A program made the position numbers and the translations under genes. The notes beneath the pieces were generated by a model that worked only from the letters and a program-made list of their open reading frames with translations, was not told where the DNA came from and did no database searches. Shown here one piece after another: positions 3,097-10,111 of a DNA stretch of 64,000 nucleotides (position 1 is the stretch's first letter; each line of letters begins with the position of its first letter). The stretch covers positions 82,095-146,094 of the forward strand of contig JBEKNE010000001.1 in the NCBI GenBank assembly GCA_049523135.1, given 5' to 3'. The DNA is from Candidatus Microgenomates bacterium (lineage in GTDB: Bacteria; Patescibacteriota; Microgenomatia; UBA8517).

Positions 3097-3178
3097 GGTG
3101 GGCGGGCAGGACGGTAATGCGCGGGTCTTGAAAACCCGTGGGAGCAATCCCTAACAGGTTCGACCCCTGTGCCCACCG
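3097..3178 (+). tRNA. tRNA-Ser (anticodon TGA), type II
   Basis: GGTGGGC...CGGGT-CTTGAAA-ACCCG-TGGGAGCAATCCCTA-ACAGGTTCGACCCCTGT-GCCCACC-G. Confidence 0.75.
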
Positions 3179-3214
3179 CATACACACTTTGTATCAAAAG
3201 ATTAATATAAATAT

Positions 3215-3880
3215 ATGGTATCTAAGCCCAAAGGATCAAAATGGCTAGTTGTTTTTTCTGCCTTCGTGTCGATATTTTTAGTTCTTTTGCTATATATTGT
3301 CGTGAAACTCCAAAACAATATCAACCAAATAGATGACGTGTACAAAATCCCGACCGACCAATCGATAAATAATACTCTTCCCAAAGGTTCCAAATTTACA
3401 CACCTAGATGCTTTTGGAATCACACAGACAGATATTCCCAACCTATTTGGCGATAACTACTTGCTGGATCCAAATCACGAGGATAGATTTTATTGGACCG
3501 ATTCAAACAACAAGCAAATAGATCTGACAGATAAATCCAGTCACATATATATAGGCATTCCACTCAAACCCCAAGACATTGGCACCAACAATCCTGAAAA
3601 CGTAAGCTACGTTAGGCAAATATTTCAAAGGTTGATATCGACTTTTGAAGATAATGGATTCAAATTGGATACTTCATTTTCCAAAATGCAGATCTATGGA
3701 TTTGATAATTTGGATTTTGTAAACATTACTGCTTTAGAAAATTCAATCGGTACGAAATGTGAGGTTAGGGAACCTGAACAATACAGTTCCAGCGAACTTT
3801 CCAACATAACCACTATATATTCGAATGTCGGTTATAGATCTTTGGTCTACATTTATATAGCTTGTGTTGATAAAATTTAA
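3215..3880 (+). CDS. hypothetical membrane-anchored / secreted protein
   Basis: N-terminal TM/signal-anchor KWLVVFSAFVSIFLVLLLYIVV. No recognisable domain. A strong intrinsic terminator follows. Confidence 0.5.
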   Translation: MVSKPKGSKWLVVFSAFVSIFLVLLLYIVVKLQNNINQIDDVYKIPTDQSINNTLPKGSKFTHLDAFGITQTDIPNLFGDNYLLDPNHEDRFYWTDSNNKQIDLTDKSSHIYIGIPLKPQDIGTNNPENVSYVRQIFQRLISTFEDNGFKLDTSFSKMQIYGFDNLDFVNITALENSIGTKCEVREPEQYSSSELSNITTIYSNVGYRSLVYIYIACVDKI

Positions 3881-3920
3881 TTTATCTCGCGATCGTTAAT
3901 CCTTAAACTCTTTCCACTAA

Positions 3921-3948
3921 AAAACCCGCATTAATAGCGGGTTTTTCG
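3921..3948 (+). terminator. rho-independent terminator
   Basis: aaaACCCGCattaataGCGGGTttttcg. A GC stem is followed by a T-run, 40 nt after the stop of the 3215-3880 gene. Confidence 0.6.
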
Positions 3949-3951
3949 TTT

Positions 3952-6931: not shown

Positions 6932-7519
6932 CTAACTACAACACGTTTCGCAGCAACAGCCATAACCCGAACCGGACGATGATGATGCTTCATGGCTATG
7001 CCTCTGTGGTTCGAGATATGCATCATCAATTGCTTTTTCTATCTTTCTATTATCGTGTAGTGAAAAGGTTCCAAAAACACGTGCTCCTATAACTGTAAGG
7101 GTTTCTTTATCGGGGTTTACGCCTACTTCTATTACAGAGAAAGAATAGTCGCCCGAGCCAGAAAAACCACCATCAGATTTTGAATGATAACCCGTACCCC
7201 ATGCAAGACTTATTTTCCCATTTTCCGGTGAATAATTCAGATCATGATTGCCTACATTTCCCTCAAGTAGGTCCTTGTCTATCTGACGAAGTTCATCAAT
7301 TGCCTTACTTTCCGTCAAGACTTTTTCGGTTTGATTTATAACAAATTGTATTCTTTTTTCCGCAGCTTCTTTTGCAAGCCTCAACTGTTCCTCCCTCTCT
7401 CTTCTAGCATTCTCCTCGGTGACTCTCCTATTTTCCTCTGCTTGAAGCCTCTCTTGATCTTGTTGTCTAAGCCTTTCTTTAATTTCTTCCGTAGACATAT
7501 TTACATTATATAATACCAA
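6932..7519 (-). CDS. charged coiled-coil protein with Ser/Gly/Cys-rich C-terminal tail (possible YcaO/SagB substrate)
   Basis: Ends ...QRHSHEASSSSGSGYGCCCETCCS. The N-terminal ~80 aa is E/R/K/Q-rich and predicted helical. The ORF-track start is TTG; an in-frame ATG at 7498 gives MSTEEIKERL. Confidence 0.5.
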   Translation of the reverse strand: MVLYNVNMSTEEIKERLRQQDQERLQAEENRRVTEENARREREEQLRLAKEAAEKRIQFVINQTEKVLTESKAIDELRQIDKDLLEGNVGNHDLNYSPENGKISLAWGTGYHSKSDGGFSGSGDYSFSVIEVGVNPDKETLTVIGARVFGTFSLHDNRKIEKAIDDAYLEPQRHSHEASSSSGSGYGCCCETCCS

Positions 7520-7531
7520 AGGCGGCTCAGG

Positions 7532-8170
7532 TCAAGAACCCAGAGCAACATAATAAATTGGATATTCTTCTCTGGCGTTTATATCCAAAAGTTGAATTAT
7601 TTGTTTCTCGTGTAGTCCGCCAATTGCGCAACAACCCAATCCGACGGAGCCTGCAGTAAGATAAACATTTTGCACAAGATGGCCAGCTTCAATATACGGG
7701 AAAACCATCCCTTTATTCTTATATTTATCCGTAGTTCTGTGGAAAGTGGCAGTAATTATTAGCAGTACTGCTGCCTTTTTAAACCAAGGTTGGGTTTTTA
7801 TCCAAATCAAATCAGTTTCTTTCTTTTTAACTTCTTGATTTAATATATCGAGATTATTGTTTACCGGATTGTAATGATACAATCCCGGCACTATCTCTTT
7901 GCTAAAAAGGATTAAGGGATATATCTCGAGAGGGTATTTAGCACCCGCAGACGGATAAGCCCGAAAGGATTTATCCTCATCAATTTTATTTTGCCTAGTT
8001 ATACCTGCACTGTAATACAAAATCTCTGAAAGTACATTTTTTGTTATTGGCTTACCTGTAAACTCTCTAAAAGATGAACGCTTTTTTATCAAGTCATGAA
8101 GCCCGTTTTTTCTTGATTTAATACTTAAACTAATCTTTGGTAATCTCGGATATTGTTTATGCATTGTCAA
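7532..8170 (-). CDS. SagB-type (McbC-like) FMN-dependent dehydrogenase, nitroreductase superfamily
   Basis: Hallmark ...FRAYPSAGAKYPLEIYP... The start overlaps the YcaO stop by 4 nt (ATGA coupling). Confidence 0.75.
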   Translation of the reverse strand: MTMHKQYPRLPKISLSIKSRKNGLHDLIKKRSSFREFTGKPITKNVLSEILYYSAGITRQNKIDEDKSFRAYPSAGAKYPLEIYPLILFSKEIVPGLYHYNPVNNNLDILNQEVKKKETDLIWIKTQPWFKKAAVLLIITATFHRTTDKYKNKGMVFPYIEAGHLVQNVYLTAGSVGLGCCAIGGLHEKQIIQLLDINAREEYPIYYVALGS

Positions 8171-9513
8171 AATGGGTAAAGACTAATCAGCTCGTTTTCA
8201 TCCAGATTCAAATTGACATTAACCCCATATTTTTTAGGTACTTCCCGGAGTCTTTTGGCACCCAAATAGGGATATCTTTCGTCGTGCCAAAGTGGGACCA
8301 TTTCAGGACACGAAACCTTGATGACCTTGAGACCATACTTTTCAATTTCCGGAATTGTCATATCGACATAAATAACCTCACAACCCAACTTACTTATTTT
8401 TTTAGTTAAATACAAAACTTTTTCATGGTCGGTTTTAAATAATTTTGGCTTGGGTAAGGACACTTTCCTGGCAGAAGCTATAACTTTTTCCACCTCTTTA
8501 ATCATGTGGGGAGAAGACCAAATTAAATGTCTCTTCCATGAAAACCAGTCAAATGAATTCTTTTTTGGTGGTTTTATATTCTTTTCCTGGAAATATAATT
8601 CCCTGCTTGTAGCATAACTCCTGAGAGCCTCAATAGCTGAGGTTTCTATAGAACGTTCAGGTTCTAAACTCGAGCCCAATCCTGCACACACCGCAGGCCC
8701 ACAACCGGTTCTATCCACAAGAATACTGACTACCGAAAACACCCCTGTATCAAGGGTTGTGTCAATGAAATACAATTCAAGCCCATATTTTTTAAATCTG
8801 TTTATAAAATTAAAAACATCCCCGTCCTTTTTTCTAATTACTACTAATTTCTTGGGCATTTCAGGAAGAAATGAAATCATATAACTGTCCCGTTCTATAA
8901 TTTCACATAATCCTCGGGCAATAGCAAAAGAGGTCGTGGGGCCACAGGCTGCCCCTGTGCTTATTGGTTTTCGAATTGTTGGTTCAGAATATTCTTTAGA
9001 GTTATAGGAGGCATAGGCAAGAGATGCTGGTATTAAGACCTCTCTTTTCTTGGTCAGAGAATAACCTTGAAGCCAATTATATCTTTTCTCAGAACTAATT
9101 ATTAAATCCTTATTTTTCTTAATGGAAAGCTGTTTTTTAGAAAAAGCCTCATAACGAATTGGGTTAATAGCCTTATCCTTTAATTTATTGAAACTACCCT
9201 TAATAAACAGGTCTCTTCTCTCGTGCAAAATACAGTAATGTTCGATGGCCTCGAAAATTGCAAAGGAAATTGCCTCAGCTTCGTCTTCGCTACCACCAAA
9301 TCCATGTGATACATTTACTTTATTCTTTCCTGAAGGTCTTTCGCATGCGTAAACATAAAAAAATGGAATGTCATTGGAAAATTTACGCTGTTCAAGTTTG
9401 CCCAATATTTTTTTGGCACGCAAAGATTCATACAACTCTTTTGTTTTTGTAGAAATCGGAAGTTCAGAAAACGGAAAGGTTTTAACTGCAAGGTCATGGG
9501 GAATTTGCATCAT
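8167..9513 (-). CDS. YcaO-domain protein (azoline-forming cyclodehydratase-like)
   Basis: ...HGFGGSEDEAEAISFAIFEAIEHY..., ...ISTGAACGPT..., ...ERSIETSAIEALRSY... match YcaO ATP-binding and catalytic regions. Confidence 0.75.
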   Translation of the reverse strand: MMQIPHDLAVKTFPFSELPISTKTKELYESLRAKKILGKLEQRKFSNDIPFFYVYACERPSGKNKVNVSHGFGGSEDEAEAISFAIFEAIEHYCILHERRDLFIKGSFNKLKDKAINPIRYEAFSKKQLSIKKNKDLIISSEKRYNWLQGYSLTKKREVLIPASLAYASYNSKEYSEPTIRKPISTGAACGPTTSFAIARGLCEIIERDSYMISFLPEMPKKLVVIRKKDGDVFNFINRFKKYGLELYFIDTTLDTGVFSVVSILVDRTGCGPAVCAGLGSSLEPERSIETSAIEALRSYATSRELYFQEKNIKPPKKNSFDWFSWKRHLIWSSPHMIKEVEKVIASARKVSLPKPKLFKTDHEKVLYLTKKISKLGCEVIYVDMTIPEIEKYGLKVIKVSCPEMVPLWHDERYPYLGAKRLREVPKKYGVNVNLNLDENELISLYPF

Positions 9514-9744
9514 GAAGCTATTTTAACCTAAACAACAAAATTATCAACACTCCTGACACCTGTATTTAGCACAAAAATTGACACAGTCGTGATAAAATAA
9601 GTTATAACCTGCTCGTGATAAAGCTGCATTTTTGTGGCTGAGATACGGACCAAAAATGAATAGCTTCACCCCGATAGACAGCATCAGACCCACAGTATAC
9701 GAAGTTACAACATGACTCCAATAACACACAACTTTATGCCTGGC

Positions 9745-10111
9745 TGGTGGAGACGGCGGGAATCGAACCCGCGTCCGAAAATACTTCAAACAACACTTCT
9801 ACAAGCTTAGTGAATTTTTATAATTTTCTTAAGGTTTAAGCCAATCCACAGGCGACCAAAAGTAAGATTTATTTGATCTTTCGTTTAAGTCTTTAAATCA
9901 TTAAGACCCAAAACGGCATCTTGACTGGTTTACACCCAGAAAGATTCGGTCAAGAATCAAATCTAACGGATGCTAGACTAGTGCTTTTTAGGCAAAGGCT
10001 AGAGCGTAACCTTGTGAGTTAGCTTTTATTTTTTAACTCTTGTTTTACGAGTACAAGTAAAACTCGGCTTGCAGTATTGTAAAGAGCTTTCCGTCGAGAC
10101 CGATCGTCCCC
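9745..10111 (-). ncRNA. ssrA: tmRNA (SsrA)
   Basis: The 5' end is GGGGACGAUCGGUCUCGACGG. The 3' end is GGACGCGGGUUCGAUUCCCGCCGUCUCCACCA, with a tRNA-Ala-like acceptor (G3:U pair) and CCA. The internal tag frame GCU AAC UCA CAA GGU UAC GCU CUA GCC UUU GCC UAA encodes ANSQGYALAFA*. Confidence 0.8.

Follow-up and report, generated by a model that had tools for sequence, protein, structure and literature searches.

We analysed a 64-kb stretch of DNA from a Candidatus Microgenomates genome (referred to below as the window) and, within it, the region between a tRNA-Ser(TGA) gene and the gene for transfer-messenger RNA (tmRNA, ssrA), which an earlier reading of the sequence, the original prediction, had taken for a single genomic island bracketed by the 3' ends of the two RNA genes. 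Loci fetched from related genomes carry labels of the type L001. Both RNA genes do point into the region, as their ARAGORN and Rfam positions confirm. The tRNA-Ser(TGA) gene (3097..3178, plus strand; Rfam, 43 bits) faces it with a 3' end in which CCA is not encoded; ARAGORN places this gene at 3101-3179, with three bases clipped at the 5' end, and it is 98.8% identical to the tRNA of L007. Upstream lies tRNA-Ser(GCT) (2989..3075, plus strand; ARAGORN; Rfam tRNA, 37 bits), the first member of a conserved tRNA-Ser pair, which adjoins the gene p198 in relatives as a conserved arrangement. On the other side are ssrA (9745..10111, minus strand; ARAGORN; Rfam, 162 bits), whose 3' end forms the proximal edge of the insert described below, and smpB (10115..10549, minus strand; assigned by both Pfam and NCBIfam SmpB models), a conserved anchor for synteny comparison. 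The 6.5 kb between tRNA-Ser(TGA) and the tmRNA gene are filled by six accessory open reading frames (ORFs), and their content is as first listed: a secreted or membrane protein of 221 amino acids (aa), a HExxH protein, a radical S-adenosylmethionine (rSAM)/SPASM protein, a Cys-rich precursor, SagB and YcaO. The SmpB protein of the window matches homologs from Candidatus Woesebacteria metagenome-assembled genomes at no more than 85% identity, which points to a Woesebacteria-like member of the Candidate Phyla Radiation (CPR) as its probable source. The junction between ssrA and the YcaO gene is not an assembly artefact, because it is identical in three independent assemblies.

For comparison we used 37 related smpB loci, obtained by an SmpB scan with one genome per species and with flanks of up to 10 kb. 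Homologs of the six region genes occur at this site in none of them (0/37), and the flanking genes recur in these loci at 35-87% identity. The conserved flank on the smpB side consists of SpoIID-like p651, p227, the DUF5657 protein p74, p625 and smpB, and that on the tRNA side of p198 and two Nudix genes. Throughout Woesebacteria, and reaching Gottesmanbacteria, the smpB-ssrA unit neighbours the tRNA-Ser(GCT)/tRNA-Ser(TGA) pair. Between ssrA and this pair relatives carry a comF-like gene of about 220 aa, with a double zinc ribbon and a phosphoribosyltransferase (PRTase) domain, and the adjacency of ssrA, terminator and comF is seen from Woesebacteria to Gottesmanbacteria; in inverted variants the comF-like gene sits between the tRNA pair and smpB. 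Taken together, these arrangements show that the ancestral order was smpB-ssrA-terminator-comF, followed by the tRNA-Ser pair. The region genes are absent from the site in relatives, and conservation of the same gene order across the clade, which would have spoken against an island, was not seen; as to the question whether the smpB-ssrA unit and the tRNA genes are directly joined in relatives, comF separates them. No comF gene was found anywhere in the window, either by tblastn with comF queries or with a comF hidden Markov model (HMM). We considered the PRTase gene at 51441-51974 as a relocated comF and rejected it, as it has no tblastn match to the comF queries and no zinc ribbon. A remnant of the comF 5' end in the 197-nucleotide (nt) spacer after ssrA, suggested by a by-eye likeness ('LLE...CG...Y'), was likewise dropped, tblastn and the comF HMM both being negative.

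The neighbourhood is variable among relatives in other respects. The smpB-ssrA unit and, independently, the tRNA-Ser pair are found in either orientation (variants L004, L005, L007, L009, L011, L014 and L018 versus L001, L003, L006, L016 and L021). In the window, a 26-nt imperfect inverted repeat (I1, 77%) joins the 3' end of tRNA-Ser(GCT) at 3050-3075 and the ssrA 3' end at 9745-9770. LAGLIDADG-type endonuclease ORFs lie beside the tRNA-Ser pair in L006 (11691-12692), L007 (8142-9143) and L014 (7611-8279), and a PD-(D/E)XK endonuclease ORF does so in L001 (11554-11919). These ORFs are a further sign that the tRNA-Ser neighbourhood gathers selfish or accessory genes.

A relic of comF remains within the region. 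Both blastn and translation identify, at 3882..3917 on the minus strand, the sequence VERV*GLTIAR*, corresponding to the conserved C-terminus VEKVWGLTIAR*, and across 30-37 nt the DNA shares 78-83% identity with the 3' ends of comF in L003 and L007. The gene is cut down to its last ~12 codons, the remainder having been deleted, in what appears to have been a separate event that fused the 5' untranslated region of comF to its last codons. Beside the relic stands the native ssrA terminator hairpin (3920..3946, minus strand; AAAAACCCGC-loop-GCGGGTTTTT), which in relatives directly follows ssrA and precedes comF. The hairpin region is 83% identical over 48 nt to the ssrA end plus hairpin of L006 (10797-10843), and the hairpin is 86% identical to L002 9112-9146, just upstream of comF; at a permissive threshold Rfam detected no extra RNA in the region, only generic terminator-like matches on the hairpin. 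The next element is the heptamer TCTCCAC (3952..3958, minus strand), with which the ssrA acceptor strand ends, and in the alignment the spacing from TCTCCAC to the hairpin is the same as at the native L006 junction. Because the comF relic, the terminator and the heptamer stand at 3882-3958, we place the limits of the insert at 3959-9744 (5.8 kb), exactly between the ssrA 3' end and ssrA's own terminator, with the heptamer as its distal edge. Since the window keeps a comF relic, comF was present before the insert.

These limits revise the region as it was first drawn. The insert begins at 9744, the base directly after the ssrA 3' end, and the tRNA-Ser end touches only sec221 (3215..3880, plus strand), an orphan gene whose 221-aa product has an N-terminal membrane helix and is either secreted or anchored in the membrane. 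Between sec221 and everything else stand the relic of comF and the terminator of ssrA, so the region consists of two unrelated parts and the tRNA-Ser end is not an island boundary. The sec221 protein belongs to no Pfam or NCBIfam family, and its own family is rare, with 9 representative clusters among 1.84 billion proteins; its best homolog is 56% identical and resides in an unrelated context. The slot of sec221 is occupied in L001 by an unrelated PD-(D/E)XK ORF and is empty in L007 and L009. This gene represents an independent insertion of small size, placed between tRNA-Ser(TGA) and the comF relic and outside the ssrA insert. The original prediction was right that the six genes are accessory, none being present at the equivalent site in the 37 loci, but not that everything here is, with a comF relic and a native terminator inside; likewise, lineage-specific content does break a conserved order, but not as one island bracketed by two RNA genes. 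No direct repeats of the tRNA-Ser(TGA) or ssrA 3' end were found within 2900-10300, and the search for a partial duplicate of either at the opposite boundary, as that boundary was first drawn, was negative. Next to ssrA, a 197-nt spacer (S1, 9548..9744, minus strand) separates it from the first module of the insert; S1 has no significant similarity to any fetched locus, and a weak tmRNA_permuted match at 9665-9772 (E 0.15) is unconvincing.

The 3' end of ssrA has unrelated neighbours in relatives too. In L002, 2.2 kb of unrelated DNA lie between ssrA and the same hairpin-comF arrangement, and at its distal edge this insert closes with a degenerate ssrA 3'-end copy (semi-global score, p~0.003 of background). 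L010 contains an exact 18-nt ssrA repeat. In L066 a 15/18 copy of this 18-nt core lies 55 nt upstream of the promoter of a YcaO gene whose product is 84% identical to the YcaO of the window, and the locus starts with a 25-nt sequence that matches the second copy in L010 at 22/25 positions, including the non-ssrA left context TGCACAC. In L014, L017 and L018, ssrA is followed by 1.6-5 kb of unrelated genes. Because partial copies of the ssrA 3' end are present in L002, L010 and L066, this end is marked as a recurrent insertion site in relatives. Three independent contigs end no more than 1 nt from the ssrA 3' end or its 18-nt repeat (L007 at 10834, L010 at 10955 and L012 at 1505); contig breaks at this point could reflect population-level presence/absence variation.

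The part of the insert proximal to ssrA is a three-gene module of the thiazole/oxazole-modified microcin (TOMM) type. It encodes a SagD-type YcaO cyclodehydratase (8167..9513, minus strand; TIGR03604, 225.7 bits against a cutoff of 219.25; Pfam YcaO, 169 bits), a SagB-type flavin mononucleotide (FMN) dehydrogenase (7532..8170, minus strand; TIGR03605, 134 bits against a cutoff of 78.4; Pfam Nitroreductase) and a putative TOMM precursor (6932..7498, minus strand) of 188 aa from the ATG at 7498, with the C-terminal core GYGCCCETCCS. The module thus combines the components by which TOMM clusters are recognised, a SagD-family YcaO, a SagB-family dehydrogenase and an adjacent precursor with a Cys/Ser/Thr-rich core; no separate SagC-like or E1-like ORF was seen among the six region genes. 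The precursor ORF ends in SSSSGSGYGCCCETCCS, and its homologs end in poly-Cys cores; it is 78% identical to the precursor of L041, and the gene call in L038 is likewise of 188 aa. A promoter-like site at 9520-9547, upstream of YcaO, starts exactly where homology to L041 begins, the homology block (window 9547-7000, L041 6514-9066) extending over 2.56 kb at 74% identity.

The precursors of the clade, which we compared at the window locus (6932-7498, minus strand), L041 (8568-9140), L042 (12029-12619) and L047 (7335-9547), are 188-260 aa long and consist of a conserved leader of ~170 aa, with the motifs LxGNVxxH, WG, DYSxIEV and AYLxPxR, and a short poly-Cys core such as GCCCETCCS, GCCCCSAN or NCECCCECSC. 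In L047 three tandem precursor genes are followed by an rSAM gene; this gene, next to a YcaO cluster, was considered as a member of the family of the window rSAM, but the two proteins are only 21.5% identical and unrelated.

Elsewhere the trio has a different home. In five loci from four genomes (L041, L042, L043, L044 and L046) it lies inside a cluster resembling a type IV secretion system (T4SS), between a large minus-strand gene and a PrgI-like gene, and L042 is on the same contig as the smpB locus L004; the cluster adjoins dnaN-dnaA and has several pilin genes as well as PrgI-like, TraC-like and VirB4-like ones. Other contexts are found in L045 and L047. The window has such a cluster of its own at 15229-31720, beside dnaN/dnaA, with about 8 T4SS_pilin genes and genes for PrgI-like, TraC-like, VirB4-like and CHAP-domain proteins. 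Mapping the genes of relatives onto the window by tblastn and sequence comparison revealed the slot of the trio in this cluster to be empty (25667..25779). The usual T4SS home of the trio is ~13 kb away in the same neighbourhood. The VirB4, TraC and PrgI proteins of the window are closest to those of L046 (91.5, 84 and 69% identity, respectively), and its YcaO and SagB are closest to those of L041 (73 and 78%) and farthest from those of L046. This incongruence suggests exchange between lineages, and the embedding of the trio in the T4SS-like cluster of relatives suggests that the putative azole peptide and the apparatus are functionally connected. The homologs of the insert modules are all from Microgenomates.

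The distal module is a cassette of an rSAM/SPASM gene and a HExxH gene (4019..6588, minus strand), defined by the stretch over which its DNA is homologous to that of other genomes. The radical SAM/SPASM protein (5110..6531, minus strand) has 473 aa and matches Pfam Radical_SAM with 72 bits and SPASM with 39 bits; its gene has its own promoter at 6542-6570, TTGACA-17-TATATT, agreeing with the consensus at 11/12 positions. Its convergent partner (4095..4913, plus strand) encodes the HExxH protein of 272 aa, which has no Pfam match and whose homologs, 42-62% identical, are always encoded convergently to the rSAM gene. Homologs of the rSAM protein number 689 at E<1e-20 across Microgenomates. At the DNA level blastn finds the cassette in L048 (85% and 76%), in L049 (76% over 2595 nt) and also in L050. 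The convergent pair is invariant in 12/12 informative loci, and the contexts differ from genome to genome (L048, L049, L050, L053, L058 and L063); none of the 12 cassette loci is next to ssrA, and a tRNA gene is nearby only in L048 (tRNA-Gln, 3 kb upstream).

Direct repeats of 25-120 nt flank the cassette in five contexts, at 4019-6588 in the window, 9897-12788 in L050, 3563-6927 in L053, 713-3397 in L058 and 4936-7275 in L063. In the window, copy A (3952..3998) lies just outside the cassette and copy B (6664..6710) between the TOMM trio and the cassette, each of 47 nt. The two copies (D1) are 77% identical, with an alignment score of 39 against a background maximum of 24, and TTTTTTAGATTGG after copy B resembles TTTTTTAGTGG, which follows the hairpin after copy A. 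A partial copy C (6598..6619, 22 nt; D10) has 82% identity to part of A. The repeats measure 50 nt (88%) in L050, 25 nt (84%) in L058 and 31 nt (94%) in L063, and L053 has 59 nt at 98% plus 61 nt at 85%. In L050, L058 and L063 they correspond to the 3' end of a long ORF (...KTRWKEVAP*), which the upstream copy in L058 preserves intact, down to the ending KTRWKEVAP*. Three other readings of sequences in this part of the window found no firm support. The first takes A, B and C for remnants of the ssrA 3' end: it is not significant by a strict local score, and under a permissive semi-global score it is marginal for A (p 0.03) and C (p 0.02) and absent for B. As precursor-peptide genes, B offers a 19-aa ORF (MPLELSVVGSNIVYSFPLF), A has no start codon, and most substitutions between them are non-synonymous. 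A by-eye likeness ('SRVFL') between spacer S2 (6589-6931) and the cassette flanks of L048 and L049 gave z-scores of ~0 against shuffles and was rejected.

The sequence composition of the region is native and carries no foreign-DNA signature. It had been described as more AT-rich than its surroundings, and its GC content is indeed slightly lower (37.5% versus 39.9% in the rest of the window), but this is a trivial difference, at the 7th percentile of stretches of the same size, and tetranucleotides and third-position GC content (GC3) are unremarkable. The strand-symmetric tetranucleotide distance of the region is at the 70th percentile, 30% of such stretches being at least as far; its genes have a GC content of 35-40%, versus 39.5 +/- 3.0 for 58 ORFs, and a GC3 of 0.30-0.37, versus 0.344 +/- 0.049 elsewhere. 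The comparison of GC and tetranucleotides proposed at the outset thus yielded no meaningful shift. The statement that no integrase is present holds for the six ORFs and extends to the whole window. Nor was an integrase remnant seen in the region, the spacers of which, at no more than 343 nt, are too small to encode an integrase.

We consider it highly probable that the locus combines a comF deletion with an accessory insert of mosaic make-up at the 3' end of ssrA. As judged from the sequence comparisons, three separate events are recorded here, the two-module insert at ssrA, the deletion of comF and the arrival of an orphan gene beside tRNA-Ser, and the 5.8-kb insert itself comprises two autonomous modules from within the clade, each with its own promoter. 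The setting would be a hot spot, formed by the ssrA 3' end, comF and the tRNA-Ser pair, that is prone to rearrangement and insertion. Both modules would have been drawn from the gene pool of the same clade, and a site-specific recombination function acting in trans would have set them at the ssrA 3' end, in a mode like that of integrase-less cis-mobilizable elements accreting in tandem at ssrA; the attachment (att) repeats would have decayed afterwards, and comF would have been lost through the separate deletion. The site-specific, trans-mobilized mechanism is put forward tentatively, its chances being in our judgement slightly under even. The statement as a whole, a lineage-specific mosaic at an ssrA hot spot including such a mechanism supplied in trans, is one that we favour with moderate confidence.

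Several observations weigh against it. The exact distal ssrA repeat in the window is 7 nt only, the likeness of 3952-3991 to the ssrA 3' end reaches p~0.03 by semi-global score and is not significant under a stricter one, and nothing in 3180-9744 matches the 18-nt ssrA core at 12/18 positions or more. Integrase, recombinase and transposase domains are absent from the six ORFs (Pfam, NCBIfam) and from the rest of the window. The cassette encodes no recombinase, and no cognate one was identified for it; nor do its flanks share a common att sequence, there being at least three unrelated repeat sequences, with A/B unlike the repeats elsewhere. Even the closest comparators (SmpB identity of 85% at most) are too remote to fix the timing and order of events, and they include no island-free allele from a close relative. 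Finally, with the home of the trio ~13 kb away and local inversions frequent, intragenomic rearrangement could look alike.

The last point leads to the best surviving alternative, purely intragenomic shuffling, in which illegitimate or short-homology recombination would have brought the trio from the T4SS-like cluster and the cassette from another part of the chromosome, with neither horizontal transfer nor ssrA-specific integration. Much of what is seen would be expected under it: relatives differ in the orientation of the smpB-ssrA unit and of the tRNA-Ser pair, the 26-nt inverted repeat joins tRNA-Ser(GCT) to the ssrA 3' end, the window has no integrase, and the comF deletion shows that events that are not site-specific happen here. 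The cleanly empty T4SS slot and the native composition are explained equally well by shuffling and by the mosaic at an ssrA hot spot. Against shuffling, the insert starts at the last ssrA base and ends at the ssrA heptamer and terminator, where a random rearrangement is unlikely to fall; ssrA 3'-end repeats mark such junctions in relatives; and the similarities of YcaO and SagB are incongruent with those of the neighbouring T4SS genes. We regard this explanation as unlikely, if worth keeping in view. Relocation, whether intragenomic or within the clade, nevertheless fits better than acquisition of a foreign island, because the modules occur elsewhere in related genomes and one of them is normally ~13 kb away.

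A single classical island, acquired once from a foreign donor at tRNA-Ser or ssrA with subsequent loss of its integrase, would account for the two RNA-gene 3' ends that bracket the region, for the accessory nature at this site of all its genes and for a GC content slightly below that of the rest of the window. This reading is largely refuted by the comF remnant and the terminator of ssrA inside the region, and further evidence points the same way: the modules differ in homology blocks, promoters and distributions, tetranucleotides and GC3 are native, all homologs are from Microgenomates, and there is no tRNA-Ser repeat. We hold this explanation to be very improbable. Least probable of all is that the arrangement is ancestral and relatives lost the RiPP (ribosomally synthesized and post-translationally modified peptide) genes from the site, for although parsimony over short distances leaves loss some room when the nearest sampled relatives are this distant, the ssrA-terminator-comF adjacency spans Woesebacteria to Gottesmanbacteria, the relic in the window places comF first, and the trio is found at its T4SS location in four divergent lineages, one of which is the nearest to the window by T4SS core proteins.

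Some features of the window lie outside this argument. Its tmRNA tag peptide is ANSQGYALAFA (11 aa), and those of the nearest relatives have 15-17 aa, e.g. ARNLFQAQPRYAQAFA; the tag-coding part of the tmRNA appears to have diverged or shortened in the lineage of the window. The genes dnaN (32363-33478, minus strand), dnaA (33696-35054, minus strand) and rnpA (35343-35699, plus strand) follow the T4SS-like cluster, and the cumulative GC skew is lowest near 33-34 kb; the probable site of the replication origin, at about 35.1-35.3 kb, is some 25 kb distant from the insert. Near the end of the window is a bAvd-like gene (63008-63355, minus strand) of the 23S rRNA intervening-sequence protein family, and a weaker homolog lies within the T4SS-like cluster of L042 (13797-14168). 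Genes of this kind often accompany diversity-generating retroelements.

Islands at tmRNA genes are a textbook phenomenon, and sublocations of integration within t(m)RNA genes were reportedly described by Williams in NAR (Nucleic Acids Research) in 2002 and in J Bacteriol in 2003. The present locus resembles such islands in its insertion at the exact ssrA 3' end, in the displaced terminator at the far end after terminal ssrA bases and in content that relatives do not have; it differs in having no integrase, an exact distal repeat of only 7 nt, native composition and a mosaic structure internal to the clade. In Dehalococcoides, tandem ssrA islands are separated by 20-bp repeats of the ssrA 3' end; some of these islands lack genes for integration, and it was proposed that they are cis-mobilizable or fixed. 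The system features a conserved integration module, which includes the serine recombinase DsiB, and its repeats are well preserved (PMC3146451). Common to both are a small streamlined genome and several modules stacked downstream of a single ssrA gene, and the 18-nt repeat of L010 and L066, with its crossover in the T-loop, is comparable. Unlike in Dehalococcoides, neither a DsiB-type module nor well-preserved repeats are seen here, and the 18-nt repeat is not detectable in the window. Cis-mobilizable elements (CIMEs), a concept cited in the same work, are integrase-less cassettes with att-like direct repeats (PMC3146451). The rSAM-HExxH cassette is similar to them as a discrete block with direct repeats in five contexts and no encoded recombinase; unlike CIMEs, its repeats differ between contexts and share no att site, and its mobility is putative. 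The trio resembles TOMM or linear azol(in)e clusters of the SagB-SagD type in its SagD-type YcaO and its SagB, both above the NCBIfam cutoffs, and in its adjacent precursor with a Cys-rich core, but the leader of the precursor (~170 aa) is unusually long and conserved, a separate SagC/E1-like partner was not seen among the region genes, and the usual home of the trio is a T4SS-like pilin cluster.

CPR genomes are tiny and are often called poor in mobile elements. The locus described here would be a concrete CPR hot spot at which accessory modules, two putative peptide-modification systems among them, pile up at the ssrA 3' end, and at which comF, a conserved competence-related gene, has been lost. 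The corrected boundaries separate three evolutionary events that annotation as a single island would merge. A CPR mosaic of native composition that lacks an integrase adds modestly to what is known, refining existing views without being a surprise. More interesting leads are the repeat-flanked rSAM-HExxH cassette found in many contexts and the azole-peptide trio of the T4SS-like pilus cluster with its ~170-aa leader; the T4SS/pilus home of the latter in relatives says more about its role than do the genes now beside it. As a speculation that we consider rather doubtful, Microgenomates, including Woesebacteria, may shuttle small, self-promoted modules that lack recombinases between a few preferred sites, the ssrA 3' end being one at which they accrete; the rSAM-HExxH cassette, with its direct repeats, and the YcaO-SagB-precursor trio would be candidate modules of this kind. 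If true, ultra-small genomes would possess a cassette system that is integrase-free or mobilized in trans, and here it would go together with the loss of comF.

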